From a virus (taxonomy: Duplodnaviria > Heunggongvirae > Uroviricota > Caudoviricetes), in IMG/VR virus record IMGVR_UViG_2778261535_000010: a stretch of DNA of 18,578 bases; one strand, given 5' to 3'. The notes under the pieces are model-generated. The model did no database searches. It was not told the origin of the DNA and saw only the letters and a list, made by a program, of their open reading frames with translations. Positions 2,776-18,578 of the stretch are shown in pieces. The position numbers and the translations under genes were made by a program. Position 1 is the stretch's first letter, and each line of letters begins with the position of its first letter.

Positions 2776-3248
2776 GCCAGCTTGAAAGCCTGACGACATT
2801 TATTACGGAAAATCTGCCGCCTGATGCCATGCAGATGTTTTCCAGTGTGATGGAAGATTGCGGGCTGACACGCAACGCCAAAGCGATGGGAAACAACCAG
2901 CGCCGGATCGGGGTGCTGACTTACACCGGTCGTTTGTCATGGGATGATTTCCCCTACCGCAAGTATTCGCCGGGGCTGATTTATGCGCTGGTGCTGGCCT
3001 GGGTGGATGAGTTCGCCAACGAGCTGCGCGACGAGCTGAGGCTGGATGATCCAAAAGTGGACCCGGAGTTCGACGACGAAGGGGCATGCATTCTGGATGT
3101 GGTCATCCCGCTGGTTGATCCGCTGGTTTTGCGTGAAGCGGAAAACGGCCCGATCCCCTACAAAGGCAAGCGCTGGGAAATCGTGGACCCCGAAATCTGG
3201 GAGGCGTCGCAACTGGAATTTATTGTCCAGCGTGGTGACGCGTCGTGA
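2772..3248 (+). CDS. tail completion protein (P2 gpR-like)
   Basis: 158 aa; start overlaps the gpL stop (ATGA). The motif TYTGRLSWDDF...LIYALVLAWVDE resembles the P2 gpR pattern (TDFTG...PVLAWL) as I recall it; size is close to P2 gpR (155 aa). Confidence 0.5.
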   Translation: MSQLESLTTFITENLPPDAMQMFSSVMEDCGLTRNAKAMGNNQRRIGVLTYTGRLSWDDFPYRKYSPGLIYALVLAWVDEFANELRDELRLDDPKVDPEFDDEGACILDVVIPLVDPLVLREAENGPIPYKGKRWEIVDPEIWEASQLEFIVQRGDAS

Positions 3249-3940
3249 TCCGGGGGGAGCTGAACCAACAACAGCTAAAGCAGATGCGGGAAACGCTGGC
3301 AAAAGCTGACCTTCCCCCGCGTAAGCGCCAGCGCCTTTTATGGCGTATTGCAAAGCTGGGCATTGTCGCAGCGGCAAAACGTCACCAGCGCCAGCAGGCG
3401 GCCCCGGGCGGTACGCCGTGGGAGCCGCGCAAGCGTGGCAAAGGGAAGATGTTAAAAGGGCTGCCCAAGCTGTTGGCCGTGCGCGAAATGCCAGAGATTC
3501 AGGGGGTAAGAATTTACCTCAAGGGCGGGAACTACCGGAACGGGACGAAGCCGATCGCGGCGGGCCTGGTCGGTGCGGTCCAGCAGGACGGCGCACGGAT
3601 CCAGATGAAAGCCAGTAACGCCCCGCGCAAGCCGCAGGCTGACCAGCCAGCGCTACCGCGACAGGCCAAGCGTCTGCGGGCACTGGGCTACAAAACCCGC
3701 AAGGGCAAGCGCTGGGTTAAGCCGTCCAGCAGGCAAATCATGGAAACCATGAGCATGGCCCAGGCGGGATTACTGATTCGAAAACTGAAAGGCACACCAT
3801 CAAAACGCACATGGACTATTGATATTCCTGGTCGCGTTTTTCTGGGGGTGAGCAACGACGAATTTAACCAAATTATTGCGCGGCAAATGCAGGCAATCGG
3901 CTTCGGCTGGGACGTCAACGCGCAGCAAATCAGGGGGTAA
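3245..3940 (+). CDS. virion morphogenesis / tail completion protein (gpS-like)
   Basis: 231 aa; GTG start overlapping the previous stop (GTGA). Lys/Arg-rich central region. The nearest ATG alternative is at 3284. Confidence 0.45.
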   Translation: MIRGELNQQQLKQMRETLAKADLPPRKRQRLLWRIAKLGIVAAAKRHQRQQAAPGGTPWEPRKRGKGKMLKGLPKLLAVREMPEIQGVRIYLKGGNYRNGTKPIAAGLVGAVQQDGARIQMKASNAPRKPQADQPALPRQAKRLRALGYKTRKGKRWVKPSSRQIMETMSMAQAGLLIRKLKGTPSKRTWTIDIPGRVFLGVSNDEFNQIIARQMQAIGFGWDVNAQQIRG

Positions 3941-3942
3941 AA

Positions 3943-5085
3943 ATGACCTGGCCTACAGTCAACGTCAGTCAGAAAAACCGCTTCAACGGCACAACGAACG
4001 ACGTCGAGCGCGTCATCCTCTTTGTGGGTTACGGCGACACTAACATCGGGAAAACCCAGTCGCTTAATACCGGCAGCGATCTGGTTAAAGCTCTGGGCGA
4101 CAAAGACAGCCCGTTAAAAAATATGGTGGCCGCAGCAGCCAATAACGCCGGTCAGAACTGGTTTGCTTACGTGCATGTGCTGGCAGAGCCAGACAAGGGA
4201 GCCGAGGGCTACAAACCAGACGAAGACTGGATGAACGCGGTCAAACAGGCCCAGAGCGTGGCATCCGTGGAAGGGGTTGTCCTGGCATTTGATACCGCCG
4301 ACGCAGCCACCATTAACCGCGCAACGGAAATGCGCGTCACCTTACAGGCCAGTTTTGGGCGTTTTATCTGGTTTGCCCTTGCTGTGGGCGGGCCGGAAAA
4401 GGACGAAGCGTGGAGCGACTATGTGACGCGCCTGGCTGAACTCCAGGACGGTATTGCATCGCCTGGAGTGCAACTGGTCCCGCGTCTGTGGGGTAACGAA
4501 CCCGGCGTCCTGGTCGGTCGCCTGTGTAACCGTTCGGTGACGGTGGCAGACAGCCCCGCCCGCGTCGCAACCGGCGCAGTCACCGCGCTGGGGAGCGACG
4601 GCCTGCCGGTCGACGGGACGGGGGCCGAAATTGATCTGGCCGTGTTGCAGTCCTTGCAGGCGAACCGCTACAGCGTGCCGATGTGGTATCACGATTATGA
4701 CGGCATCTACTGGGCTGACGGTCGCACCCTGGACGTTGAAGGCGGTGATTATCAGGTGATTGAAAACGTGCGCGTGGTTGATAAAGCCTCCCGCCGCGTC
4801 CGTCTGCGTGCAATCCCAAAAATTGCCGATCGTTCACTGAACAGCACACCGGGCAGCATCGCCGCGCATGAAACCTATTTCGGCAAGCCGCTGCGCGAAA
4901 TGGCGATTTCAACCCAGATCAATGGCGTCGAATTTCCGGGCGAAGTGAAGCCACCAAAGGACGGCGACATCACCATCACCTGGACCAGTAGCGAAGCGGT
5001 GCAGATTTACCTTGTGGTTCGACCGTATGAGAGCGCGAAAGAAATCAGCGTCAGCATCGAACTGGACACCTCACTGGAGAGCTAA
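3943..5085 (+). CDS. tail sheath protein (putative)
   Basis: 380 aa, in the size range of contractile sheath proteins, directly followed by a 151-aa tube-sized gene, in a prophage that also has TMP and baseplate genes. AGGGGG RBS. Confidence 0.5.
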   Translation: MTWPTVNVSQKNRFNGTTNDVERVILFVGYGDTNIGKTQSLNTGSDLVKALGDKDSPLKNMVAAAANNAGQNWFAYVHVLAEPDKGAEGYKPDEDWMNAVKQAQSVASVEGVVLAFDTADAATINRATEMRVTLQASFGRFIWFALAVGGPEKDEAWSDYVTRLAELQDGIASPGVQLVPRLWGNEPGVLVGRLCNRSVTVADSPARVATGAVTALGSDGLPVDGTGAEIDLAVLQSLQANRYSVPMWYHDYDGIYWADGRTLDVEGGDYQVIENVRVVDKASRRVRLRAIPKIADRSLNSTPGSIAAHETYFGKPLREMAISTQINGVEFPGEVKPPKDGDITITWTSSEAVQIYLVVRPYESAKEISVSIELDTSLES

Positions 5086-5088
5086 TCA

Positions 5089-5544
5089 ATGACTGAACGT
5101 ATCAGCGGTGGATCGTTCGATGTGAACTACGACAGCATCATGATTCACGTCGAAAACGCCACCGTCACCATTACGGATAACAGCGCCGTTGCGCAGTCGC
5201 GTGGCATCCCGAACGGCCACACGAAAGGGGCAGTTTCGGCGGATGTGGAAGTCGAAGTCGACTCCCAGAACTTTAAAAAGTTTACCGCCGTGGCCCGTGC
5301 CGCAGGTTCCTGGCGATCCATTCCGGCAAAGGACTTTTTGTTCTACGCCAACGCCGGGGACGACGAAGAAAAAATCGAGGTGTTTGGCTGCGTTCCGACG
5401 CTGTCCGACATCGTCAACATCAACCCCAACGAGGCCAGCAAAACCACGAAGAAAATTAAATTCATGGTGACAAGCCCGGACTTTGTCGCGATTGACGGCG
5501 TGCCGTACCTGTCAGCCCGCGACACTCGCGATTTGAAAGGCTGA
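5089..5544 (+). CDS. tail tube protein (putative)
   Basis: 151 aa; starts 4 nt after the sheath stop. Size and position are typical for a tube protein. Confidence 0.5.
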   Translation: MTERISGGSFDVNYDSIMIHVENATVTITDNSAVAQSRGIPNGHTKGAVSADVEVEVDSQNFKKFTAVARAAGSWRSIPAKDFLFYANAGDDEEKIEVFGCVPTLSDIVNINPNEASKTTKKIKFMVTSPDFVAIDGVPYLSARDTRDLKG

Positions 5545-5548
5545 CACG

Positions 5549-5860
5549 ATGATGAACGGAGAAACGTCACTGCTTGAAAAGCTGTTGCTTATCGGGGCCG
5601 TGATTGGCCTGGGGCAACTGATGGTCAGCAATGAGCGAATCACAACCCGCCTGCTGGTCGGGCGGATGATTCTGGGATCTGCGGTCGCACCGCTGGCCGC
5701 AATCCCGCTGCTGAAATTCCCCGATATGCCGGAACTGGTCGTCATTGGGCTGGCCTGCGCCCTGGGCATTCTGGGAAGCGCGTTTATTGAGGCCGGGTTA
5801 AAGCGCTGCCTGGATATGTATATCAAGCGATGGGGGAGCAAGCGCAATGAAACTGAGTGA
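5549..5860 (+). CDS. holin (class I-like, three predicted TM segments)
   Basis: 103 aa; tandem Met-Met start. Three hydrophobic stretches (LLEKLLLIGAVIGLGQLMV, LLVGRMILGSAVAPLAAIPLL, LVVIGLACALGILGSAFIEAGL) and a charged C-terminus (KRCLDMYIKRWGSKRNETE). Lies immediately upstream of the endolysin. Confidence 0.6.
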   Translation: MMNGETSLLEKLLLIGAVIGLGQLMVSNERITTRLLVGRMILGSAVAPLAAIPLLKFPDMPELVVIGLACALGILGSAFIEAGLKRCLDMYIKRWGSKRNETE

Positions 5861-6185
5861 AAAACAGCAACTTTTCACGGTGATGATCGCCAACCTGATT
5901 CATTTTGCCGAAGAAAAGGGTTATCGCCTGACGTTTGGCGAAGCGTACCGCACGCCGGAACAGGCCGCGCTTAACGCAAAAAAAGGGAGCGGCATTACTA
6001 ACAGCCTGCATACCCAGCGCCTGGCGGTGGATTTTAACCTGTTTATTAACGGCGATTACCAGACCGACAGCGCCGCATATCGCCCACTGGGCGAATACTG
6101 GGAATCTATCGGCGGATCGTGGGGTGGCCGTTTCAGTAAGCCGGACGGGAACCATTTCAGTCTTGAGCATAACGGGGTTCGCTGA
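5847..6185 (+). CDS. endolysin, L-alanyl-D-glutamate peptidase (peptidase M15 family)
   Basis: 112 aa; GGGGGAG RBS. Contains SLHTQRLAVDF (His-x6-Asp) and a C-terminal DGNHFSLEH His, the zinc-ligand pattern of T5-type M15 endolysins. Start overlaps the holin 3' end. Confidence 0.75.
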   Translation: MKLSEKQQLFTVMIANLIHFAEEKGYRLTFGEAYRTPEQAALNAKKGSGITNSLHTQRLAVDFNLFINGDYQTDSAAYRPLGEYWESIGGSWGGRFSKPDGNHFSLEHNGVR

Positions 6186-6568
6186 TGCGCAATTTGCTGG
6201 GTCTTTTGCTGATTCTGGTCGCTGCAATGTCAGCGGGCTGGCAGGCGCATGACTGGCACGACGCAAAGCTGCAACTCGCTGCCAGTGAAGCGGCAGAACA
6301 AACACGCCAGATTGTCGTTGAAGTGACGCAACAGTCTGGCGAAGCGCTGGAAGCAAAACTCGCGGGGCTAAAAGCCAATGAAAGGCACACGGAACGGGTT
6401 ATTCGCACAGAAATCATTAAGCCGGTTTTTAGCAACGTTTGCGCTTCTGATGATTACGTCCGGTTGTTCAACGAAAGTGCAGATCAAGCCGAACGAGAAT
6501 TATCAGGAAAACCAGCTGACACTTTGCCCGGTCACGCTGCCACGTCTGGCCGGACCGACCGGAAATGA
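6185..6568 (+). CDS. i-spanin (Rz-like)
   Basis: 127 aa; ATG overlaps the endolysin stop (TGATG). N-terminal TM segment LLGLLLILVAAM followed by a charged, probably coiled-coil, periplasmic region. Confidence 0.65.
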   Translation: MRNLLGLLLILVAAMSAGWQAHDWHDAKLQLAASEAAEQTRQIVVEVTQQSGEALEAKLAGLKANERHTERVIRTEIIKPVFSNVCASDDYVRLFNESADQAERELSGKPADTLPGHAATSGRTDRK

Positions 6569-6674
6569 CTTTGACGCGGCGCTGACAGCCTACCGGCAGA
6601 TGTATACCGACTGCGCCGCCCGACATAACGCCCTGGTGGGCATCATTCGACAACGTAAGGAATTAGCACAATGA
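6378..6674 (+). CDS. o-spanin (Rz1-like lipoprotein), +1 frame overlapping Rz
   Basis: Starts inside Rz in another frame and extends past the Rz stop. Signal peptide with a lipobox-like FALLMITSGC. The true start codon is uncertain. Confidence 0.55.
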   Translation: MKGTRNGLFAQKSLSRFLATFALLMITSGCSTKVQIKPNENYQENQLTLCPVTLPRLAGPTGNDFDAALTAYRQMYTDCAARHNALVGIIRQRKELAQ

Positions 6675-6940
6675 GTAAACCGAAAAAAATCGCCATGACC
6701 GTGGCGGGCGTAAATCTGAGCTTTGAGCCGAATAAAACCGCGTTTAACAACCTGCTTAACGAAATGACCATGACCAATAAGGTTGCCCCTATGGTGACGT
6801 ATCTGGGCCGCATTGTTGATGCCGAGTGTAAAGAGTCGCTCAACAAGCTGATGGAAGATTATCCGGGTTGCGAAATGCAGATCGTCGAGAAGGTTAACGA
6901 GATTTACTCCCCCAAACTTGAGATCGAAGTAAAAAACTGA
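6671..6940 (+). CDS. tail assembly chaperone (gpE-like), zero-frame product
   Basis: 89 aa; lies directly upstream of the tape measure gene; ends in the slippery heptamer A_AAA_AAC followed by TGA. Confidence 0.65.
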   Translation: MSKPKKIAMTVAGVNLSFEPNKTAFNNLLNEMTMTNKVAPMVTYLGRIVDAECKESLNKLMEDYPGCEMQIVEKVNEIYSPKLEIEVKN

Positions 6941-7128
6941 CGGCGCGGGTGGCGGCCATTCGCAAGAATGCGCTTGAGCAATACCTTGCCCTGCGCCGCT
7001 ACTACCTCCCGCACGAAGCCGACGACGAAGAAAGCATCGCCCGCGCCCTGTGGCTGGACGAGTATTTTGCCCAGACCCGCGCCAGCAAGACGGCGGAAGG
7101 GATAGCCATCGCATTTAACGGAAACTGA
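6671..7128 (+). CDS. tail assembly chaperone, -1 frameshift fusion product (E+E'-like)
   Basis: Slippery A_AAA_AAC at 6931-6937 in the zero frame. The -1 frame is open from 6937 to the TGA at 7126-7128 (63 extra codons, LTARVAAIRKNALEQYLALRR...IAFNGN) and has no start codon of its own. It ends 1 nt before the tape measure ATG. Confidence 0.6.
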
Positions 7129-7129
7129 T

Positions 7130-9244
7130 ATGAGCCACCTGGATTTTACCCTGAGCCTGATCGATAAGCTGACGCGGCCATTAAAAACGGCCCAGTCTTC
7201 GCTGTCTGGCTTTGCTGAAAAATCGCAGGCATCTTTTACAAAAATCGGGATCGGTGCGGCGGCTGTCTGGGGCGTGGCGCAGTCCATCGCGGGCGTGGTG
7301 GGTCCGGCATATGAGATGAACGCCGCACTTGCAGAAGTGGGTTCCAAAGGCGTGGCAGAGGACGCGCTGAAGCGTCTGTCCGGCGAAGCTATGCGATTCA
7401 GTATGCGCTACGGCAAAGGGGCCGTTGATGTGGTCCGGTCAAGCTACGCGATGAAAGGTGCAATGGCGGGCCTGTCCGATCTGGACCTGCCCCGCGTCAC
7501 CATCGCGGCCAATACCCTTGCGGCAGGCGTCAAGGCCAGCGGCGAAGAGGCAGGCGAATACATCGGCGCGATGGCGTCACGTTTCAACGCGGAGTTGTCC
7601 AGTCTGGGCCATGTGCGTTTTGCCGAAGAGCTGGCAGGGAAAACCGCGTACATGGTGCAAAACTTCGGCGTGAAAATGCAGACCATGCAGGAGCTTATCG
7701 AGGGGACGAAAAGTGCCGGTGCTGACTTTGGCGTCAGCCTGGATGAACAGTTCGCCGTCCTGGGTACGCTTTCGCGCACGCTGGGTACTGAGGCCAGCGG
7801 GATCTACGAGCAGTTTTTACGCAGCGCCCCGGCTGCCGCTGAAAAGCTGGGTATGAGCTTTGTCGATGCCACCGGAAAAATGCTGCCGATGGGCGACATT
7901 CTGCAAAAACTCCAGAGTAAATACGGGCAGAGCATTGAAGGGAACGTCAAGGCACAACAGGCGCTGGACGCCGCGTTCGGTGGCGGTGCTGACGTTATCA
8001 AAAAGCTGTACGGCCAGCAGGATAAATTAAATCGCAGTATCACCGAGCTGGGCCGAAACGACGGGATGAAACGCGCCCAGGAAATGGCCGCACGAATGGC
8101 CGAGCCGTGGGAGCGTATCAAAGCGACATTCTTTGCCATTCGCGTGGCGATTGGTAACAGGCTGATCCCTATTCTGTCACCGCTGATGAACCGTATTGCC
8201 GACGTGGGGACAAAATTTGCCCGCTGGCTGGATATGTTCCCGAATATTGCCCGCTGGCTGGGTTACATCACCCTGGGCGTGCTGTCCTTCGGGCTGGCCG
8301 GGGCGGCGGTCAATATCGTGATGGGGGTCTTTGGCTTCACCATGATGGGGCTGGCCGCAATCGCAAAAGTGCTGGGCGGTGCATGGAAACTCCTGTTATG
8401 GACGCTCAACCTGTTGCGTCCGTCCCTGCTGACGACGCGCATCGGTCTGGCCGCATTATGGATCCAGTCAAAATTGCTGGCGTTGTGGACGGGCGTCTGT
8501 CGCATCGCGCTTGCTGCATGGAATATCGCGTTAAAGGCCGGGGCCATTGCCATGCGGGTTTACGGTGCGGCGACCATGTTTGCCGGGGCTGCAATGCAAT
8601 TCCTGATGAGTCCGATCACCCTGATTATTGCCGGACTGGCGCTTCTGGCTGTGGGGGTCTGGTATGTCGTCACCCACTGGGAAGAACTGGCGGCAGCGAT
8701 CATGGATACGGCGGCTTTTGCCTGGGTGATGTCAGTCGCTGAACAGGTGGGACAGGTGTTTGCGCAGGTCTGGCAATCCATTACTGACGGCTGGGCCGTG
8801 GTGGTTGATTTCTTTGCCGGTCTTTCCCCGCTCGCCACCTTTGAAGGGTTCGCACAGACCATCGGCGGGGTATTCAGCAAACTTTTCGACGTCCTCAAAA
8901 ATACCTTTGCATCTACCTATAACTGGATTGTTGAGAAGTTAAACAAGATCCCCGGCGTCAACATCGACCTGAAAACCGTTTCGCCACCGGCAGCGGCTGC
9001 CGTTCCGGCAAACGCGGTCGTTCCTGACAGTGCTGCAGGTTCGTCGAAGCTGAACAGCCCGTCCGTGCTGACGGGGAACCGAATTAATGCAGACATCCCA
9101 CGCGGCGGCCTGATGAGTCAGGTTAAAACCGACAGCAAAACCGCTGTGGATAACCGTAAATCGTGGGGCGACACCTACATCAACGCCCCCAATGGAATCA
9201 CCCCGGCCCAGCTGGCTGAATGGCAGGAGCTTAACGCAGGATGA
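7130..9244 (+). CDS. tail tape measure protein
   Basis: 704 aa; follows the frameshifted chaperone; Ala/Gly-rich with a long central hydrophobic, helix-rich block (NIARWLGYITLGVLSFGLAGAAVNIVMGVFGF...). Confidence 0.85.
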   Translation: MSHLDFTLSLIDKLTRPLKTAQSSLSGFAEKSQASFTKIGIGAAAVWGVAQSIAGVVGPAYEMNAALAEVGSKGVAEDALKRLSGEAMRFSMRYGKGAVDVVRSSYAMKGAMAGLSDLDLPRVTIAANTLAAGVKASGEEAGEYIGAMASRFNAELSSLGHVRFAEELAGKTAYMVQNFGVKMQTMQELIEGTKSAGADFGVSLDEQFAVLGTLSRTLGTEASGIYEQFLRSAPAAAEKLGMSFVDATGKMLPMGDILQKLQSKYGQSIEGNVKAQQALDAAFGGGADVIKKLYGQQDKLNRSITELGRNDGMKRAQEMAARMAEPWERIKATFFAIRVAIGNRLIPILSPLMNRIADVGTKFARWLDMFPNIARWLGYITLGVLSFGLAGAAVNIVMGVFGFTMMGLAAIAKVLGGAWKLLLWTLNLLRPSLLTTRIGLAALWIQSKLLALWTGVCRIALAAWNIALKAGAIAMRVYGAATMFAGAAMQFLMSPITLIIAGLALLAVGVWYVVTHWEELAAAIMDTAAFAWVMSVAEQVGQVFAQVWQSITDGWAVVVDFFAGLSPLATFEGFAQTIGGVFSKLFDVLKNTFASTYNWIVEKLNKIPGVNIDLKTVSPPAAAAVPANAVVPDSAAGSSKLNSPSVLTGNRINADIPRGGLMSQVKTDSKTAVDNRKSWGDTYINAPNGITPAQLAEWQELNAG

Positions 9245-9576
9245 GTACCGAACCGTTATACATCGACCTTTTGATCACTGACGGCGATTTCACGCTGGAC
9301 AGCGGCAACGAGCCGCGCCGTTGCGATAACCGCGACAGCATCACCCAGGACATTATTCACAGCATTCTGGAAAGCGGTATCACCACCCGCCTGATCGGTG
9401 AGCGCAGCCCGACAATGCGCGGTGACGTGCTGACGCAACTGTCCTTACTGGTGGAAAGCGACGAACGTCTGGTCCCCGGCACCATATTGATCACCGAAGA
9501 AACCCTTTCGCGGTTGTATGTCACGGCGGAAACCTACGATTTCGGCCCTGTCGGTACAGAGGTTAACTATGACTGA
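9241..9576 (+). CDS. baseplate protein, possibly gp25/gpW-like wedge
   Basis: 111 aa; ATGA overlap with the TMP stop. Weak gp25-like pattern (DSITQDIIHSILESGITTRLIGER). Sits immediately before the baseplate J gene. Confidence 0.4.
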   Translation: MSTEPLYIDLLITDGDFTLDSGNEPRRCDNRDSITQDIIHSILESGITTRLIGERSPTMRGDVLTQLSLLVESDERLVPGTILITEETLSRLYVTAETYDFGPVGTEVNYD

Positions 9577-10753
9577 GAAACCCGACATTGATTTTGAAAA
9601 AGTGCTGAATGACAGCGGGATGCCCGCGACAGAGGCCGAAATTACGGCGGCATTTAAAGCCACCGTGCAGGCGGAAGGGTTCGTCACAAATACGTCGAGA
9701 ATGTCACCTTTCTGGCGGCTGATTTCGAAGATTGTCACCACGCCGGTGTTATGGCTGCGGGCGGCGCTGATCGATGTGGTTCTGCGCAATATGTTTGTCG
9801 CGACGGCCACCGGTCCAATGTTGCGCCTGCTGGCCTGGGCGGTCCATATCGTGCCTAAACCCGCCAGCGCTGCCGCTGGCGTGCTGCGGTTCTACAAGCT
9901 GAACGCGGCGGATGTGGTCGTCGTGCCAGCCGGAACACTGGTGCAAACCGAGCGTATTAACGGCGTGGTTTACGTGCTGGCCGTGAATGAAGACGTGACG
10001 CTGCCTGCCGGGGTTGAAAGCGGGCTGGTTCCCGTCACGGCGACCGGCACCGGTAGCGGCTATAACCTTGCGCCCGGCTATTACCGGATCTTACCTGTTG
10101 CGGTGGCCGGGATTGCCAGCGCGGTAAACGAGGACGAATGGCTGATTACGCCAGGGGCTAACGAGGAAAGCGACGACGAGCTGCGCGACCGGACCCGCAA
10201 CCAGTTTAATCTGGTAGGTAATTACCACTCTGACGCTATTTACCGCAGCATGATTGCCAGCGTGCTGGGCCTGAGCGTTGATCGCATTTACTTTTTGCAC
10301 GATGCCCCGCGTGGGCCGGGTACGGCAAATGCTTACCTGTTGCTGGACAGTGGCGAAATATCACAGCCCTATATTGATGCGGTTAACGACTATGTGAATA
10401 CCCAGGGCCACCACGGACACGGTGATGATCTGCAGTGTTATGCCATGCCGGAAACCAGCCACACCCTGGCGGTGACGGTCTACGTCAAAAGCGTGGAAAA
10501 CATGGAAGCGGAAGACCTGAACGCGTTAAAAACCGGTATTACTGACCTGATTCGTTGCGCGTTTCGCGAGAACGCCAATTACGACGTTAAAAAGACGCAG
10601 CCCTATTCGCGCTATTCCTTTTCGAATCTGGGCCGCGAGATCCACAAGGCTTTTCCGGTTGTCGATTCACTGCATTTTTCACTGACGGATATTGTCAGCG
10701 AACTGTCGGTCCCGCGCCTGTCAGGGTTAACGGTGGAGGTTGAAAATGACTGA
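9569..10753 (+). CDS. baseplate J-like protein (gpJ/gp47/gp6 family)
   Basis: ATG at 9569 with GAGG 7 nt upstream (the track ORF begins at 9518 without an RBS). About 394 aa. Position between the wedge and gpI-like genes matches P2 W-J-I order. Confidence 0.7.
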   Translation: MTEKPDIDFEKVLNDSGMPATEAEITAAFKATVQAEGFVTNTSRMSPFWRLISKIVTTPVLWLRAALIDVVLRNMFVATATGPMLRLLAWAVHIVPKPASAAAGVLRFYKLNAADVVVVPAGTLVQTERINGVVYVLAVNEDVTLPAGVESGLVPVTATGTGSGYNLAPGYYRILPVAVAGIASAVNEDEWLITPGANEESDDELRDRTRNQFNLVGNYHSDAIYRSMIASVLGLSVDRIYFLHDAPRGPGTANAYLLLDSGEISQPYIDAVNDYVNTQGHHGHGDDLQCYAMPETSHTLAVTVYVKSVENMEAEDLNALKTGITDLIRCAFRENANYDVKKTQPYSRYSFSNLGREIHKAFPVVDSLHFSLTDIVSELSVPRLSGLTVEVEND

Positions 10754-11339
10754 GTTTTCAACCTTGCTTGCCGGTCTGAAATTGCCGTCGTGGCTGAACA
10801 AAGGCGACCCCGCCAGGCTGTTGCGTGGCTGCGTGAAATTCTGGTCGCAGGTGTACGGGTGGATTACCTGGCCGTTAAAGCAGTTTGACCCACTGGTCTG
10901 CCCCGAACCGCTGTTAAACCTGATTGCCTGGGAACGCGACATCGTTCGGTTTAAGGGGGAGCCGCTCGACATTTTCCGCAAACGGGTGAGTTACGCATTT
11001 ATCAATGCGCAGCAGGCCGGAGAGGTGGCGGGCTTTATTGCCATTTTTGAGCGACTGGGGATTGGTTACGTTGAATTACTGGAGCGGCAGGACGGACTCG
11101 ACTGGGATGTGATTGTCGTTCGGGTGACAAACAGTCAGATTGCGGAAAATGGCGATCTCCTGCTGGAAATTATCCGTAAATATGGGCGTACATGCCGCCG
11201 TTACCAATTTGAAGTGATCACAGCCCTGCCACTGAATATCAATATCGGCTGGTATCAGGGGGAATATATTTGCTGGCCTGCCACCCTGAGTGATGTGAAT
11301 AACCAGCCCCAAATAACATACAGCGCAAGTTTGAAGTAG
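10746..11339 (+). CDS. tail protein I-like (baseplate, gpI family)
   Basis: ATG at 10746 with GGAGGT RBS; overlaps the J-like stop by 8 nt. About 197 aa, immediately upstream of the tail fiber. Confidence 0.55.
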   Translation: MTEFSTLLAGLKLPSWLNKGDPARLLRGCVKFWSQVYGWITWPLKQFDPLVCPEPLLNLIAWERDIVRFKGEPLDIFRKRVSYAFINAQQAGEVAGFIAIFERLGIGYVELLERQDGLDWDVIVVRVTNSQIAENGDLLLEIIRKYGRTCRRYQFEVITALPLNINIGWYQGEYICWPATLSDVNNQPQITYSASLK

Positions 11340-11350
11340 AGGAAAAACCT

Positions 11351-13036
11351 ATGTCACAGGCTGTTATTACAAAAGCATTTACAGAGTGGAAAGCCCAGCA
11401 GGCTATTAATAATCAGCCCGTCACGCTGGATGAATTTATTTTTGCGTATATTCCGGGGTTGGATGCTGATAAGCCGATTGATAATACCGAGACAGCACCC
11501 GCAGTGGATAAAATTGTTTATCGTCAGGTGGTGAGTAAATCCGGTGTTGTGAATGAAAACTCTGTCGTTTATTCCGTCACTATGGGGGCGGATGTGGGTG
11601 ATTTTGATTTCAACTGGATCGGTCTGGCAAATAAAGCCACCGGTACACTGGCGATGATTATTCATGCCCCGACCCAGCGTAAAATCAAAAATGCGAACGG
11701 CCAGCAGGGAAACGTTCTGGTCCGTTCCATGCTGATGGAATACAGCGGAGCCAGGGAAGCAACGGAAATTACCACCCCGGCAGAGACATGGCAGATTGAT
11801 TTTACTGCCCGGCTGGCGGCAATGGATGAACGCCAGCGCCGCGAAAATATCGATCTGTATGGCGCAGCGGCTTTTTTTGATTCGGGCTATCTGGTAGCCA
11901 AAACCGGCAATCAATTTTTTGTCACAAAGGGGGCGGGATACGTCGCCGGGTTACGTGCTGAATTGCCCGCAAACATGAATATCACTGCATCCGCGAAGCC
12001 AACAAAGGTCTGGCTTGATGTCAGCTGGACCGGGACGTTAACGAGCGAATGGGCAGTGCAGAGCAAAATCACCGTTGCCGCAGATCTTGCCGATTATGTA
12101 CTGGGCGGTGTGCAGCATTATGTCTTTGCGGTGGCGAGTATTGATGCTACCGGAAATGTCATGGACCTGCGCCCGAAAGGCACGCTGAACCACCAGGCGG
12201 CCAGTGATGCGCTGAAAAAGCATGAGCAGTCGCGAAATCACCCTGATGCCTCAATCAGCGAAAAAGGGTTTGTGCAGTTAAGCAATGCCACGAACAGCGA
12301 TTCCGAGACACTGGCCGCCACGCCAAAGGCAGTAAAAGCGGTGAATGAGAATGCGAATAAGCGCGTTCCTTCCGAACGCAAAGTGAATGGTAAGCCACTG
12401 ACGGAAGATATTGAGATTACGTCGATAACGGGTAATGCAGGGACTGCCACGAAGCTGGCTACAGCCCGCACTATAGGGGGAGTGGGGTTTGATGGTTCGG
12501 CTAACATTAATCTGCCGGGTGTAAACACTCAGGGAAACCAGAACACTACGGGTAATGCAGGGACTGCCACAAAGCTGGCTACAGCTCGCACTATAGGGGG
12601 AGTGGAGTTTGATGGTTCGGCAAACATTAATCTGCCGGGGGTAAACACTCAGGGAAACCAGAACACCACAGGTAACGCTGCAACAGCCACAAAGTTGCAT
12701 ACAGCTCGCACAATTAATGGCGTTGTTTTTGACGGTACGAAAGATATTGCTATTTCAGCAAGTGCGATTGGTTCCTACACAAAAGCGGAATCTGATGCAC
12801 GATTTCAGATAATTGTTCCTGTTTCTGGTGCGGTGGGTACTTATGCCTTCGCCCGAATTGAATCAGGTAATACCACTATTAATTTTGGTTCCACTCTGCC
12901 CGGTTCAGTACTTCGTGCAACATGTGGAGATGGCACTCTGGCCGGTAATGCTCTTGCAGGTACATGGCGATGTTGTGGAGCAACTTGGGGATCTTCCTGG
13001 TACAGTCGAAATACTGTATGGATTCGCATTGTATAA
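11351..13036 (+). CDS. tail fiber protein
   Basis: 561 aa. Contains SETLAATPKAVKAVNE and tandem KLATARTIGGVxFDGSANINL repeats typical of phage tail fibers. Followed by a tail fiber assembly gene. Confidence 0.85.
   Translation: MSQAVITKAFTEWKAQQAINNQPVTLDEFIFAYIPGLDADKPIDNTETAPAVDKIVYRQVVSKSGVVNENSVVYSVTMGADVGDFDFNWIGLANKATGTLAMIIHAPTQRKIKNANGQQGNVLVRSMLMEYSGAREATEITTPAETWQIDFTARLAAMDERQRRENIDLYGAAAFFDSGYLVAKTGNQFFVTKGAGYVAGLRAELPANMNITASAKPTKVWLDVSWTGTLTSEWAVQSKITVAADLADYVLGGVQHYVFAVASIDATGNVMDLRPKGTLNHQAASDALKKHEQSRNHPDASISEKGFVQLSNATNSDSETLAATPKAVKAVNENANKRVPSERKVNGKPLTEDIEITSITGNAGTATKLATARTIGGVGFDGSANINLPGVNTQGNQNTTGNAGTATKLATARTIGGVEFDGSANINLPGVNTQGNQNTTGNAATATKLHTARTINGVVFDGTKDIAISASAIGSYTKAESDARFQIIVPVSGAVGTYAFARIESGNTTINFGSTLPGSVLRATCGDGTLAGNALAGTWRCCGATWGSSWYSRNTVWIRIV
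12428..12750 (+). repeat. in-frame 120-bp tandem repeat inside the tail fiber gene (two near-identical copies plus a diverged third)
   Basis: Copy 1 (12428-12547) and copy 2 (12548-12667) differ at about 5 positions. From 12668 the homology continues but is diverged (GNAATATKLHTARTINGVVFDG). Confidence 0.9.
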
Positions 13037-13049
13037 TTTGGAGGTGCTT

Positions 13050-13448
13050 ATGTTTGAGAATGCAACGATTGATAACCCTCGAACCACAAATATCAATATT
13101 TATATTGATGTGGATATTCACCTGAATGATCAATCAATTACTTTTACTTCGATGCCTGACGACTCCGAAATATATAGTGTTGAGATTTATAAACGCGCTT
13201 TAAATGGCGAGTTTGGAAAAATTATAACTATTGAAAATGATGTTTTTTCGGCAAACAAACTACAAAAAGACATGTTGCAATCAAGGGCGGCTGAATCAAT
13301 TACTGTTCTTGAATATGCGGTTGAATTGAAAATGGCAACGGAAAAGGAAATGCAACTACTCAATGAATGGAAAAAATATGTAGTTTTATTAAGCCGCGTT
13401 AATTTAACAAACCCTAAATGGCCGGAGGTTCCGGGCGATGTGGCGTGA
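13050..13448 (+). CDS. tail fiber assembly protein (Tfa/gpG-like chaperone)
   Basis: 133 aa; GGAGG RBS with ATG at 13050. C-terminal NPKWPEVP motif typical of Tfa proteins. Markedly AT-rich compared with neighbouring genes. Confidence 0.7.
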   Translation: MFENATIDNPRTTNINIYIDVDIHLNDQSITFTSMPDDSEIYSVEIYKRALNGEFGKIITIENDVFSANKLQKDMLQSRAAESITVLEYAVELKMATEKEMQLLNEWKKYVVLLSRVNLTNPKWPEVPGDVA

Positions 13449-14160
13449 ATCGGTTGTAAAGATTGCTGATGATATGGGGGCGCTGGCCTGTTCCATTGTC
13501 CCCGCGCATCCCTGGGTTTACGGTCTGGGACAGAACACGGATTCAGGCGGTTATCTTAGCCCGGCCAATGCGATGGGATATCTTGCTAAAAAGCTGTTAT
13601 CCGGTGTCGGTAGCGGTGACGTCATCGTCATGATGGTGGCGGAGAATACCCACGACGCTTTTATGCAGGGACTGAATAAACTGTCCACCGTATTTCCGGC
13701 CCCGGTATTTACGCAGGTAAGCCGCATGGCCGCAGCCGCCGCAGAACTCAGCACGGTAAAAATGCAGTTGCCGGTTAAAGCCGACGTATTGCCAGCCAGT
13801 GCGCCGTTATCTGTCTCAACCAACCGGCTGGCGCTGAATGCCCAGCGGGTTGCCGCCGCTCAGCTGGCCGCCTCAGTCAGTACCACCACAACAGATCTAA
13901 AAAATCAGGTTACGGGCTTTATTCAGGAACGGGCCGGTTTGCTGGCCTCACTCAGCCAGGGACTGGACGATCTGAAAGCCGCCAGTGCGAATATTTTTTC
14001 ATTCAGTTACAGCGGGAGTTATGCCGTTGCAGCCGCTGAATTGCTGAAAGGCATCCCGCAAACAACGGCAGTGCATACCGCCGCGATGATGTTTATCGGG
14101 GATTCGTTATCTGACTTAGAGAAGATGCTACATGAGCCAGACCGCATTACTCGCGCTTGA
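13438..14160 (+). CDS. hypothetical phage protein (unassigned, Ala-rich)
   Basis: 240 aa; GGAGG RBS 9 nt upstream of ATG 13438; overlaps the Tfa stop. Phage-like G+C. No motif I can assign. Confidence 0.4.
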   Translation: MWRESVVKIADDMGALACSIVPAHPWVYGLGQNTDSGGYLSPANAMGYLAKKLLSGVGSGDVIVMMVAENTHDAFMQGLNKLSTVFPAPVFTQVSRMAAAAAELSTVKMQLPVKADVLPASAPLSVSTNRLALNAQRVAAAQLAASVSTTTTDLKNQVTGFIQERAGLLASLSQGLDDLKAASANIFSFSYSGSYAVAAAELLKGIPQTTAVHTAAMMFIGDSLSDLEKMLHEPDRITRA

Positions 14161-14674
14161 TGGTGAAGGGATCGCCATGCAAAACATGCTGGTTTCACCT
14201 TCCATGCAGTTTCAGGAGAAGGACCAGTCGGGCCAGACATCGAGCACGGCCAATGCTGAACAGGGTATCAAGGCCAAAGAGCTGCGCGTGTCGGGTCTGG
14301 TGACATTCGACGACGAAGCCGTTTTACAGCGGCTTTTCCAGCTGGCATCCGCAACCGAAGCCAGCGGCGCACTGAAAAAGTACCGCGTCGCAAATGCGAC
14401 GGCAACGGCTATCAACCTTCGTGAAGCCACGTTCACCGGCCAGATTGATGCCGTACCGCAGGAGGATCGCCTTGCCTGGCAGGTAAGTTTTACCCTGCGT
14501 GAAAAAGGCAGCGTCCCGGAAAAACGACAGGCCCGCAAAGGTAATGCGACGGCCAGCACCAAGCAAACGGGGTCAAAGGGCGCGGGTTCGGCTGCCGGTG
14601 CTGACGAGCCAGCCGACAAAATGAGCTGGTTTGAAGAAAAGGTCTTAAAGCCGGTCAACGATGCGCTGGGGTAA
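14132..14674 (+). CDS. hypothetical phage tail protein (possibly gpU-like tube initiator)
   Basis: 180 aa; alternative start at 14177 has a better RBS (GAAGGG). Assignment rests only on size and its position just upstream of the hub/spike gene. Confidence 0.35.
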   Translation: MSQTALLALDGEGIAMQNMLVSPSMQFQEKDQSGQTSSTANAEQGIKAKELRVSGLVTFDDEAVLQRLFQLASATEASGALKKYRVANATATAINLREATFTGQIDAVPQEDRLAWQVSFTLREKGSVPEKRQARKGNATASTKQTGSKGAGSAAGADEPADKMSWFEEKVLKPVNDALG

Positions 14675-14681
14675 TTAAACG

Positions 14682-16406
14682 ATGAAACCAATTAAACGCC
14701 TGTACCTTTCCTCTGATCCGGTCCATCTGATTGACTGCAATATCGTGCTGGAGCTGAACGCGTGCGGTCGGGGGTTTATTACGGCGGGGACCGAGACAGA
14801 TTACACCGGTAAAATAGTGCGTATCGATGTTGGTTATGATGGTCTGGTCCTGCGCTGGTTTACCGGGTATGTCGAGCGGTCACAGCCTGCTGATAATGGA
14901 ACATGCCGGTTGTTCGTGCGTGAGCTGGTAGGCATCTTTGATAAATTGTGGCCGTGTTCTTTCCAGCATCCAACGCTGCGCCAGATTACTGACTGGATAA
15001 GTGAGCAAAGCGGGCTGGCCGTCACAACGCCGGTCGGCGCTGCTTATGCAGATAAACCGATCCCCCACTTTACGCACAGCGGCACGGGCTATCAGCTTCT
15101 TGCCATTCTGGGCCGCGCATTTTCAGTGACGGATTATCTCTGGTATCAGCTGCCGGACGGGGATGTCTTCGTCGGCGCTGCGGATCACAGTCTTTTTGCG
15201 GGTAAACCAGTGGAGATCCCGCACGAATTTAGTCAGGCATCGGCAGGCGGTAATTCAATGGTTGTGCCGATGATTCAGAGCCTGCGCCCCGGCGTTGACG
15301 TCAACGGCCATCGGCTAAACCAGGTCCGGCTAAATAACGACGATATGGCAATCACCTGGCAGCCACGCAGCAAAGCCAACGGCCAGCCATTGCAAAAATC
15401 ACCGATTCAGCGGCAGATTGAAAACGCATTCCCGGAGCTGGCAAGCGGCCTGCATCTTCCAAAGTTCGCCAGAGTGGAAGCACCAAGCGAGGATGTATCA
15501 GGGGGGAATATTGCCGATCCATTCCGCCCGCGCTATGCCGTGGATCTCCAGCTGCTTGACGAAGACGGCAAGCCAGCCGCAAATACGCCGGTTTATTCTG
15601 CCGTTCCGCTACCTGTACCAATGGCGGGGAGCGAGTCGGGAATGTTCCAGTTTCCGCCCCCTGGCACGCTGGTTGAAGTCGGGTTCACGGAGGGGCGGCA
15701 GGATAAGCCCTTTGTGCGCCAGATTATGGCGGAGGGGCATAACCTGCCAGCGGTTAAACCCGGCGAGCAATTGCAGCAACAGCGCGATGGTGTATCGCAG
15801 CGCGTGACGGTTGCCGGAGACTGGGAACGCCAGACGGACCAGACAATTCGCGAAAACTCCATGACTCGCGAAGTCACCACCGACGAAGAGATCCGCAAAG
15901 TGGTTGTCCGTGAAACTACGGTCCAGGCAACAGATAAAACAACCGTGCTGGGCACGGCCACACTTCTGGCCGGGGCGGTGGTCCATATCAGCGAGGGTGA
16001 TTACAGTATTGGCACATCCGGCAACCTGACAGTAACCTGCAGCAAGGACAATTCCGTCAGTGTTGGCCGGAACGTGAAACGGGACGTCGCGGGCAATGTT
16101 ACAGACGACGTGAAAGGGAATGTCACGTCAAACGTCAGCGGCGCACTGACTGAAAAAATCAGCGGCATCCGCCGAAGTGTGGCCCAGGCGCAACAGTTGA
16201 TTGCCCCGGTGGTAAAACTGGGAAGCGAAGAGATTAACGTCCTGACACTACTCACTGACACCCTGGACGTGGTGAGGGTGCTGGCAGAGACTGCCGCATC
16301 ACATACTCACCCCAATACGGGGACCAGCGGGCAGGCTGCGCAGTTCACCGCAACGGCCACTAAAACCGGTACATTGAAAAGCAAATACGGCCCCCTGATA
16401 GCCTGA
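14682..16406 (+). CDS. baseplate hub/central spike protein (VgrG-like architecture; gpV-like C-terminus, possibly fused to a gpD-like N-terminus)
   Basis: 574 aa. The C-terminal region has octapeptide V-x-G repeats (DVAGNVTD / DVKGNVTS / NVSGALTE / KISGIRRS) visible as 24-nt periodicity around 16057-16170, and an H-x-H motif (SHTHP, about 16301-16309) like spike apex iron sites. It is the last gene before att, as gpD is in P2. Confidence 0.55.
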   Translation: MKPIKRLYLSSDPVHLIDCNIVLELNACGRGFITAGTETDYTGKIVRIDVGYDGLVLRWFTGYVERSQPADNGTCRLFVRELVGIFDKLWPCSFQHPTLRQITDWISEQSGLAVTTPVGAAYADKPIPHFTHSGTGYQLLAILGRAFSVTDYLWYQLPDGDVFVGAADHSLFAGKPVEIPHEFSQASAGGNSMVVPMIQSLRPGVDVNGHRLNQVRLNNDDMAITWQPRSKANGQPLQKSPIQRQIENAFPELASGLHLPKFARVEAPSEDVSGGNIADPFRPRYAVDLQLLDEDGKPAANTPVYSAVPLPVPMAGSESGMFQFPPPGTLVEVGFTEGRQDKPFVRQIMAEGHNLPAVKPGEQLQQQRDGVSQRVTVAGDWERQTDQTIRENSMTREVTTDEEIRKVVVRETTVQATDKTTVLGTATLLAGAVVHISEGDYSIGTSGNLTVTCSKDNSVSVGRNVKRDVAGNVTDDVKGNVTSNVSGALTEKISGIRRSVAQAQQLIAPVVKLGSEEINVLTLLTDTLDVVRVLAETAASHTHPNTGTSGQAAQFTATATKTGTLKSKYGPLIA

Positions 16407-16477
16407 CAAAAAGCGGCATAACCGCACACATCACCAGACACCACAGAACGCGCCACAGCAGGCGCAAATATTAAAGG

Positions 16478-16515
16478 TCGCCAACGTGCGGCCTTTCGTT
16501 CGTTCGTTCAACAGC
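16478..16515 (+). terminator. putative intrinsic terminator of the late operon
   Basis: GGUCGC/GCGGCC stem (one G-U pair) with a 6-nt loop, followed by the U-rich UUUCGUUCGUUCGUU, about 70 nt after the hub/spike stop. Confidence 0.35.
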
Positions 16516-16952
16516 GGCCCACAGCGTAAGCGACAGCAGGCAGACGGAAGCGGATCCAGGACGGAAACGGCGCTACACCGCACCCGCCTGCGCAGTTTGG
16601 ATCATAAAAATTTTGCAAAAGAAATTTTGCGCAAAGCACCCCGCCAGCCTGCGCCGCTGATGGGATTTTGCATCCTGCGGGCGTTTGCACGCTGCGCAAA
16701 GATTTGCAGCACTTTGCAAAAGTCACCGCGCAGTCAGTCGCTAACTGACTGGATAACATGATGTTTTTAAAAGGATCGTTTTGGTTTTCGTGACGATCAA
16801 AATGATTCGGTGGCATCCGGTAGTTTTCGGACGCGGATATCGTGAAGCCTTGCGCGGCGCGGGCTGGCGGCAGGTTTGCTTTGATTTGGGTTTTGCAAAA
16901 TGATGCACGAAGATTTGATAAAAGAATCTACAGCGAAGGGGGGGGAAGTATT

Positions 16953-17045: not shown

Positions 17046-17072
17046 AAAAAATAAGCCCGTGTAAGGGAGATT
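17046..17072. other. P2-type attachment site core (prophage-host junction, attR or attL)
   Basis: AAAAAATAAGCCCGTGTAAGGGAGATT matches the 27-bp P2 att core from memory. It coincides with the 3' terminator half of cyaR. Phage-type sequence lies to the left and host genes to the right. Confidence 0.65.
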
Positions 17073-17132
17073 ACACAGGCTAAGGAGGTGGTTCCTGGTA
17101 CAGCTAGCATTTTATGGGTTATGTTTTTCAGC
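17046..17132 (-). ncRNA. cyaR: CyaR (RyeE) Hfq-dependent small RNA
   Basis: The reverse complement reads GCTGAAAAACATAACCCATAAAATGCTAGCTGTACCAGGAACCACCTCCTTAGCCTGTGTAATCTCCCTTACACGGGCTTATTTTTT, matching the E. coli CyaR sequence as I recall it, including the terminator hairpin and U tail. It lies downstream of yegQ as in E. coli. Confidence 0.85.
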
Positions 17133-17139
17133 GAAACGG

Positions 17140-17216: not shown

Positions 17217-18578
17217 TCACTTACCGTGGGGGTTACGCGTGGTTTCCCCGGAGAAATTACGCATCAGCAGCGCGTAATTTAGCTCAAGATCCTGCGGCAC
17301 CGGGATCCACACAGTATAACCATCGCCTGGTGCGACCGGCATAGCTTCACCTTTGGCGTTTTCCATATGCTCAAGGGTAAAGTTAATGTTGCCTTGCGGC
17401 GTCATCAGCTCAAGGCTGTCGCCAACGGAGAATTTATTTTTCACCGCTACCGCCGCGAGGTCGCCCTTGCGCTCACCGGTAAACTCACCAACAAACTGCT
17501 GGCGGTCAGAAACTGAATAACCGTATTCGTAGTTCTGATAATCGTCGTGAGTATGACGACGCAGGAAACCTTCGGTATAGCCACGATGCGCCAGACCTTC
17601 CAGAGTTTCCAGCAGGCTGGTATCGAATGGTTTGCCCGCAGCGGCATCATCGATAGCTTTACGATAAACCTGTGCGGTGCGTGCGCAATAGTAGAAAGAT
17701 TTGGTACGGCCTTCGATTTTCAGCGAATGCACGCCCATTTTGGTCAGGCGTTCTACATGGGCGATGGCGCGCAGATCTTTCGAGTTCATGATGTAAGTGC
17801 CGTGCTCATCTTCAAACGCGGTCATATACTCGCCCGGACGCTGGGCTTCTTCGATCATAAACACTTTGTCAGTTGGTGCGCCGATACCCAGCGTCGGCTC
17901 AACATTTTGCACCGGAATCGGCTCGTACTTGTGTACGATGTTGCCAACGTCATCTTCTTTCCCTTCCTGGACGTTGTACTCCCAGCGGCAGGCGTTGGTG
18001 CAGGTGCCCTGATTCGGATCGCGCTTGTTGATGTAGCCAGAGAGCAGGCAGCGACCAGAGTAGGCCATACACAGCGCGCCGTGAACGAAGATCTCTACCT
18101 CCATATCCGGCACCTGATTGCGGATCTCTTCAATCTCTTCCAGCGACAGCTCGCGAGAGAGGATCACGCGGGTCAGGCCCATTTGCTGCCAGAATTTCAC
18201 CGTCGCCCAGTTCACGGCGTTAGCCTGTACCGAGAGATGGATCGGCATTTCAGGGAAGTGCTCACGCACCAGCATAATCAGCCCTGGATCGGACATAATC
18301 AGCGCATCCGGCCCCATTTCCACCACCGGTTTCAGGTCACGGATAAAGGTTTTCAGCTTGGCGTTGTGCGGTGCAATGTTGACCACGACATAAAACTTTT
18401 TCCCCAGCGCATGGGCTTCATTAATGCCGAGCTGAAGATTTTCGTGGTTGAATTCGTTGTTGCGCACACGCAGGGAGTAACGCGGCTGGCCCGCATAAAC
18501 AGCATCTGCGCCATAAGCGAAAGCGTAACGCATATTTTTCAGCGTTCCCGCCGGGGAAAGGAGTTCCGGTTTAAACAT
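17217..18578 (-). CDS. yegQ: peptidase U32 family protein YegQ (tRNA hydroxylation protein TrhP)
   Basis: Complete 453-aa ORF; the window ends exactly at its start codon. MFKPELLSPAGTLKNMRYAFAYGADAVYAGQPRYSLRV... matches E. coli YegQ as I recall it. Has the conserved neighbourhood with cyaR. Confidence 0.85.
   Translation of the reverse strand: MFKPELLSPAGTLKNMRYAFAYGADAVYAGQPRYSLRVRNNEFNHENLQLGINEAHALGKKFYVVVNIAPHNAKLKTFIRDLKPVVEMGPDALIMSDPGLIMLVREHFPEMPIHLSVQANAVNWATVKFWQQMGLTRVILSRELSLEEIEEIRNQVPDMEVEIFVHGALCMAYSGRCLLSGYINKRDPNQGTCTNACRWEYNVQEGKEDDVGNIVHKYEPIPVQNVEPTLGIGAPTDKVFMIEEAQRPGEYMTAFEDEHGTYIMNSKDLRAIAHVERLTKMGVHSLKIEGRTKSFYYCARTAQVYRKAIDDAAAGKPFDTSLLETLEGLAHRGYTEGFLRRHTHDDYQNYEYGYSVSDRQQFVGEFTGERKGDLAAVAVKNKFSVGDSLELMTPQGNINFTLEHMENAKGEAMPVAPGDGYTVWIPVPQDLELNYALLMRNFSGETTRNPHGK

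Follow-up and report, generated by a model that had tools for sequence, protein, structure and literature searches.

Probable hub and spike in one chain

Does a phage of the P2 type need separate genes for the hub and the spike of its contractile tail? The question is raised by an open reading frame (ORF) of 574 amino acids (aa) in an 18,578-nucleotide (nt) stretch of caudoviral DNA (IMG/VR record IMGVR_UViG_2778261535_000010), hereafter the window. A preliminary description, made from the letters alone, had read the ORF as a fusion of P2 gpD and gpV and thus as a VgrG-like hub-spike in a single chain. The ORF is indeed one ATG-initiated frame on the + strand, and it very probably encodes the central hub-spike of an HP1-like (Peduoviridae) contractile tail, made as one polypeptide. 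The earlier interpretation is therefore partly supported, being right in substance and wrong about rarity: it had called such a fusion unusual for a P2-like phage, when the arrangement is normal in the HP1 branch and has been in print for HP1 since 2023 (PMC10612066, Table S1 footnote d). New here are the fold-level confirmation of both modules, the exact domain boundaries, a count of split and fused forms, and the exclusion of the neighbouring orf33 homolog as a hub.

Sequence comparisons identify the protein as the ortholog of Haemophilus phage HP1 orf35 (UniProt P51739), to which it is 41% identical over 100% of its length. The tblastn searches that gave this match found homologs in 75 phage genomes. 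Full-length homologs encoded by a single ORF occur in SI7 and SW3 (97% identity), Yersinia vB_YenM_324 and phages like Cronobacter ESSI-2 (63–65%), HP1 and HP2 (41–42%), and Aeromonas phiO18P (gp46), Pasteurella F108 and Vibrio Kappa/K139 (kp45) (36–40%), all of which fall in the HP1 subgroup of the Peduoviridae. Furthermore, the protein matches the profile phrog_2258 ('baseplate protein') from end to end (E 2.9e-273, residues 1–574 on profile positions 1–544 of 544), and a shorter, spike-only family (phrog_4011) matches residues 240–571 alone. We aligned 53 diverse homologs (34–97% identity) as a family and found the Pfam domains of known spikes among them: Phage_base_V in 38 of the 53, Gp5_trimer_C in 18, Gp5_C in eight and the GpV Apex motif in three. 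A single-sequence phmmer search of the Protein Data Bank (PDB) returned just marginal matches to gp5/VgrG beta-helices (E >= 0.015). The family profile matched the T4 gp5 beta-helix (E 8e-4) and residues 414–582 of VgrG1 (E 0.0025).

Predicted domain structure

We modelled the monomer with AlphaFold2 (AF2) from the 53-sequence alignment and assigned its secondary structure with DSSP. The mean predicted local distance difference test score (pLDDT) was 81.8, and residues 1–230 scored above 90. The model places the hub, an oligonucleotide/oligosaccharide-binding (OB) fold and the beta-helix on a single chain in the domain order of VgrG (Table 1). The preliminary description had set a long region of about 450 aa ahead of the spike. 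The model resolves it instead into a hub (residues 1–228) with the predicted core fold of gp27, gpD and Mu gp44, a linker (229–240), an OB-fold head (241–385) and the first, aperiodic part of the beta-helix. The comparison with VgrG was upheld by the alignments of the model with fused hub-spikes, namely 9gtr_q (359 residues), VgrS (333), VgrG1 (318), the AlgoCIS protein 7aef_q (293), Afp8 and Pvc8, and by matches of its C-terminal half to the spikes Mu gp45, P1 gp5, pyocin PA0616 and P2 gpV. Foldseek searches of viral models with the same structure returned proteins named 'Phage protein D', '43 kDa tail protein' and XkdQ-type proteins. At the sequence level, a hub profile built from 80 sequences aligned with a 6-sequence gpD profile in hhalign (E 8e-4), collinearly between hub residues 41–149 and gpD residues 65–176.

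Several observations weigh against the protein being a hub-spike. The hub–gpD alignment had an hhalign probability of just 24%, a weak link at the sequence level, and was not significant when a single gpD sequence replaced the profile. No family member matched Pfam Phage_GPD (PF05954) at E <= 0.1 (0 of 53), a domain that P2 gpD itself matches at 6e-27, and BLASTP of the 574-aa protein against P2 gpD and against gpV gave no significant alignment. The Phage_base_V and Gp5_C matches of the protein itself fall under the Pfam cut-offs. The predicted template modelling score of the AF2 monomer is 0.51, at which the relative placement of the domains is unreliable, and the beta-helix is assigned no DSSP strands in a monomer that has no partner chains. 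Finally, the hub module (~228 aa) is about 130–160 residues shorter than gpD (387 aa) or Mu gp44 and may lack a domain that those hubs use. PDB searches yielded no experimentally solved HP1-type baseplate.

The linker also bears on whether the two modules stay joined. The fusion could be translated whole and then cut at or near residues 229–240 during assembly, which would leave hub and spike as two chains in the mature virion, like those of P2 or of T4, where gp5 itself is cleaved. The linker is short, variable and found in fused versions alone, the pLDDT falls to about 78 around residues 230–260, and the split versions described below show that the modules can work as separate chains. However, we found neither a protease site nor evidence of maturation, and the hub/spike boundary has no internal methionine or obvious start codon. 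We regard cleavage as improbable and keep to a hub-spike that functions as one polypeptide.

The needle and its apex

The C-terminal half of the protein has the repeats of a needle. Residues 417–496 form ten consecutive 8-mers in register, with V, L or T at position 1, V or I at position 5, G at position 7 and N or D at position 8. The lag-8 autocorrelation was 0.44 for glycine and 0.34 for V/I/L, values reached by 5 and 11 of 20,000 shuffled sequences, respectively. Pfam places Gp5_C at residues 471–494 and Gp5_trimer_C at residues 451–497 of the same region. These patterns indicate a beta-helix of the Gp5/gpV/Mu gp45 type with 8-residue periodicity. The octapeptide periodicity claimed in the preliminary description was thus significant but misplaced, for it had been assigned to the C-terminal 120 residues. 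The spike layout proposed for that stretch also changes, as the last ~75 residues are predicted to form a helix (520–540), a turn with the H-x-H motif and a second helix (552–573).

Among the homologs the beta-helix ranges from 92 to 131 residues and its length steps by about 8 residues (92, 100, 107, 115, 122 and 130). The needle apparently lengthens or shortens by whole octads, and the 574-aa protein lies at the long end of the series.

The SHTHP motif described earlier is present once, as stated: the protein contains exactly one H-x-H sequence (H541-T-H543), and both histidines are kept in 52 of the 53 aligned homologs. The surrounding sequence, SHTHPNTGTSG, is similar to the C-terminal end of P2 gpV (LHTHKHPGDSGGTTG), and the matches to the Pfam GpV Apex motif (PF18946), in three family members and in Kappa kp45, are weak. 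By analogy with gpV, H541 and H543 presumably bind a metal in the trimer. The AF2 model departs from the layout of a gpV-type apex, which follows straight after beta-structure and closes the chain. Here a predicted helix precedes the motif and 31 residues, including another helix, come after it, with a C-terminal consensus (LKxKLxPII) conserved across the homologs. Because this helix–HxH–helix context is unlike that of gpV, the case for metal binding is one of analogy. The first of the two helices presumably forms a trimeric coiled coil. It is conceivable, if rather doubtful, that HP1-type phages have an apex of their own, in which the H-x-H sits at the turn between the trimeric coiled-coil helix and a returning helix to give a metal-clamped helical-bundle tip rather than the beta-apex of gpV and phi92 gp138. 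Such an apex architecture, if real, would be one so far unseen in experiment.

Neighbouring genes and the search for a separate hub

The preliminary description had remarked that no separate hub gene was evident in the tail cluster, and this holds because all of the other ORFs in the cluster have other assignments. It had also named two upstream ORFs (13438–14160 and 14132–14674) as places where a gpD-like hub might be hidden. In that case the 574-aa protein's N-terminal region would be a mere adaptor on the spike. The first of these ORFs (240 aa) is about as large as a short hub and the second carries a Pfam label of 'baseplate complex protein'. However, neither looks like a hub. The first, a homolog of HP1 orf33, had no match in sequence and profile searches of the PDB and is excluded as a hub. 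The second, a homolog of HP1 orf34, was likewise without a PDB match by sequence or profile and showed no similarity to the hub profile in hhalign. That the true hub is one of these two ORFs is very unlikely.

The position of orf34 corresponds to that of gpU in the P2 order T-U-D-ogr-att, and the gene has been labelled 'gpU?' with a homology called 'uncertain' (PMC10612066). This tentative label is unsupported by our comparison of small profiles, in which the orf34 and P2 gpU families did not match in hhalign (probability 0.75%), and BLASTP of the orf34-like protein against gpU gave no significant alignment. The conserved part of the orf34 homolog is N-terminal, spans ~135 aa and includes a DMSGQTSST motif; the rest is a low-complexity tail.

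Fused and split forms

In Pseudomonas phage phi3 and Pseudoalteromonas proACA1-A, which also belong to the HP1 subgroup, the match to the 574-aa protein divides over two overlapping genes in different frames. The upstream gene (232–234 aa, 'P2 gpD-like' in the proACA1-A annotation) aligns to residues 1–228 and the downstream gene (317–323 aa, annotated as 'cell puncturing device' or 'Gp5 domain') to residues 241–574, so the split modules share the domain boundary of the fused form, at 30–39% identity. The genes overlap by 16–28 nt (L005 3684–3699; L006 3627–3654), and in both phages the ATG of the spike overlaps a conserved Trp codon of the hub (A-TGG). In the alignment, the split versions stop just past the conserved W226 and resume at residue ~241. 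The fused proteins have an additional in-frame linker of 10–14 residues where the split genes overlap. Programmed frameshifting was considered for the split phages, whose junctions look instead like ordinary overlapping genes, each with its own ATG.

An exhaustive search of 1.84 billion representative sequences identified 685 relatives, of which we classified the best 150 by their coordinates. These comprised 14 fused proteins, 66 stand-alone spikes, 11 stand-alone hubs and 59 fragments or chimeras. The stand-alone spikes begin at query residues 239–262 and the stand-alone hubs are 226–244 aa long. Of these, the split forms are the more diverse, with 66 spike-only and 11 hub-only representatives against 14 fused ones. 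Within the HP1 subgroup the fused gene is the norm (HP1, HP2, Kappa/K139, phiO18P, F108, ESSI-2 and SI7). Three unusually long representatives (P0357, P0363 and P0391) join part of a hub-spike to the N-terminus of a tail fibre or to a segment of replication gpA. These chimeras are probably artefacts of assembly or gene calling, or come from decayed prophages.

Since close relatives have two overlapping genes in different frames exactly at the hub/spike boundary, a frameshift introduced by sequencing or assembly could in principle have merged two real genes into one long ORF. This explanation is effectively refuted because the fused ORF recurs independently: one cluster at 90% identity holds 594 member sequences on 400 contigs, the fused form spans 14 distinct clusters at 50% identity, and it is also present in SI7, SW3, ESSI-2, HP1, HP2, Kappa, phiO18P and F108. 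Furthermore, the linker of the fused forms is extra in-frame sequence rather than a simple 1-nt slip. An artefact of this kind has little more than a nominal chance of being true, and we treat the fused gene as genuine.

In a neighbour-joining tree of spike residues 241–400, 14 of the 15 fused sequences grouped in a single clade that nests within the split forms. The tree suggests that the split form is ancestral and that fusion occurred essentially once, the fused gene deriving from a ~230-aa hub gene that overlapped a ~320-aa spike gene. The tree is a crude one whose branches carry no support values, and P0378, a fused sequence, lies outside the main fused clade; both points weaken the case for a single origin.

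The prophage and its right end

Comparison by blastn shows 95–96% identity between the window and the genome of Salmonella phage SI7 (Irrigatiovirus, Peduoviridae) over positions 3118–12363 and 13415–16902, ~12.7 kb in total. This similarity marks the window as a Salmonella prophage of the P2-like/HP1-like (Peduoviridae) type, close to SI7. The + strand carries a full late module that ends in the 574-aa ORF: a scaffold gene (partial), major head protein, small terminase, head-tail adaptor, tail terminator and tail completion protein; the sheath and tube, followed by holin, endolysin and spanins and then the tape measure protein; a DUF2590 protein, J-like wedge protein, I-like protein, tail fibre and fibre chaperone; and the orf33-like, orf34-like (PF25759) and hub-spike ORFs. 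The same terminal order (orf33-like, orf34-like, hub-spike) is seen in HP1, phiO18P and Kappa. One homolog bears the automatic UniRef name 'Actin cross-linking toxin VgrG1' and the domain order is that of VgrG, but the notion of a true VgrG from a type VI secretion system (T6SS) or tailocin is refuted by the phage gene context, with head, terminase, head-tail adaptor and lysis genes and ~12.7 kb of near-identity to an isolated phage in a window without T6SS genes, and its probability is negligible.

Between the two blocks of SI7 homology, positions 12363–13415, which cover the C-terminus of the tail fibre and the beginning of the fibre-assembly gene, gave no blastn match to SI7, in contrast to their flanks. 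The segment looks like a swapped host-range cassette.

The preliminary description had also taken the 574-aa ORF for the last gene before the attachment site (att). It is the final sizeable phage gene at the right end of the prophage, but ~500 nt of phage DNA lie beyond it, as the homology to SI7 continues to position 16902. This segment (16406–16902) has no recognisable gene. It contains three copies of the palindrome TTTTGCAAAA (at 16611, 16712 and 16891) and a 17-nt inverted repeat (arms 16641–16657 and 16854–16870), which may be arm sites of att for Int, Cox or IHF. We found no tRNA gene at the prophage end. The gene for the small RNA (sRNA) CyaR/RyeE separates the prophage end (~16902) from the host gene for a U32 peptidase, and this puts the prophage ~150 nt downstream of the CyaR terminator. 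In E. coli K-12, P2-like remnants are present at this locus.

Table 1. Coordinates of the hub-spike ORF, its predicted domains and the neighbouring features in the window.
Feature	Residues	Positions (nt)	Strand	Remarks
Hub-spike ORF	1–574	14682–16406	+	Single ATG-initiated frame, 574 aa
Hub domain	1–228	14682–15365	+	Predicted core fold of gp27/P2 gpD/Mu gp44
Linker	229–240	15366–15401	+	QPRSKANGQPLQ-type; joins hub and spike; absent where the modules are separate genes
Spike head	241–385	15402–15836	+	Two short helices, then OB-fold domain (predicted)
Beta-helix needle	386–515	15837–16226	+	Clean octads at residues 417–496 (nt 15930–16169)
Predicted alpha-helix between beta-helix and apex	520–540	16239–16301	+	AF2/DSSP, pLDDT 85–89
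H-T-H apex motif	H541, H543	16302–16310	+	Sole H-x-H of the protein
C-terminal helix after apex	552–573	16335–16400	+	AF2, pLDDT about 86–89
HP1 orf33 homolog		13438–14160	+	240 aa; judged not a hub
HP1 orf34 homolog, baseplate protein		14132–14674	+	180 aa; Pfam PF25759 HP1_ORF34 'baseplate complex protein', E 6e-53
CyaR/RyeE sRNA gene		17049–17134	-	Rfam RF00112, 100.7 bits
Host U32 peptidase gene		17217–18578	-	

Proposed function and significance

The domain order suggests how the protein could work. Three copies would assemble on the tail axis, where residues 1–228 would form a hub ring of the gp27/gpD/Mu gp44 type that mediates between the three-fold spike and the six-fold tube and baseplate wedges. 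Each chain would then continue through the 12-residue linker into the OB-fold head, the three-stranded beta-helix needle of 8-residue repeats and a short helical segment. At the tip, the conserved H-T-H would contribute six histidines per trimer that hold a metal ion, like those of P2 gpV and phi92 gp138. Contraction of the sheath would drive the needle across the outer membrane. Being covalently linked, hub and spike would have to leave the end of the tube as one unit, as VgrG does.

The current understanding of contractile tails is unchanged by these results, and the HP1 fusion had been noticed before. What they provide is a function for a protein mostly labelled 'hypothetical', including the one in SI7 and hundreds from prophages of Salmonella, Citrobacter and Enterobacter. 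They also complete the baseplate inventory of HP1-like phages, in which hub and spike are one gene. Furthermore, fused and split versions with an identical boundary offer a natural system in which to ask why T6SSs and extracellular contractile injection systems (eCIS) fuse hub and spike and most phages do not. Fused and split variants of a short (~230 aa) hub and its spike could, for example, be used to test whether covalent linkage alters what reaches the periplasm.

Comparison with known systems

The closest counterpart is HP1 orf35 (phrog_2258), which has the same length class, the same position as the last large gene, the same order of hub, linker, OB fold, beta-helix and H-x-H, and a conserved H-x-H. 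Its beta-helix has 92 residues versus about 130 in the 574-aa protein, or roughly five extra octads here. ACA1/proACA1-A gp48 ('P2 gpD-like') and gp49 ('cell puncturing device') and their phi3 equivalents have the same modules, boundary and genomic position, but as two genes without a linker.

In P2, gpD and gpV are encoded by separate genes in different operons, in contrast to the single chain described here, and gpD has 387 aa versus the 228 of the hub module. The P2 gpV chain stops 12 residues beyond H199, the last of its apex histidines (14 beyond the HTH), and has no segment like the 574-aa protein's C-terminal helix. The P2 hub consists of three copies of gpD; six gpU tube initiators lie above it and the gpV trimer below, with an iron site at the gpV apex (bioRxiv 10.64898/2026.09.14.750843). 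Mu gp44 and gp45, like the pyocin R2 hub and PA0616, are separate polypeptides, unlike the 574-aa protein. Since about 217 of the ~325 residues of the Mu-type hub align, that hub is roughly 100 residues larger. The T4 complex of gp27, gp5 and gp5.4 has the same class of hub fold, and the octapeptide beta-helix of gp5 is the one matched by the family profile (E 8e-4) and by Pfam Gp5_C. However, T4 uses three separate proteins, of which gp5 carries a lysozyme domain and the PAAR-like gp5.4 forms the tip (PMC12407873).

The spike-hubs VgrG, Afp8, Pvc8 and that of AlgoCIS are single chains with a larger hub part (about 370–400 aa), and they operate in T6SS or eCIS rather than in a phage. VgrG has a blunt end that is sharpened by a separate PAAR protein. 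The 574-aa protein, unlike the PAAR-capped VgrG, has its own H-x-H tip. It would work like VgrG, yet it is not a member of the VgrG family.
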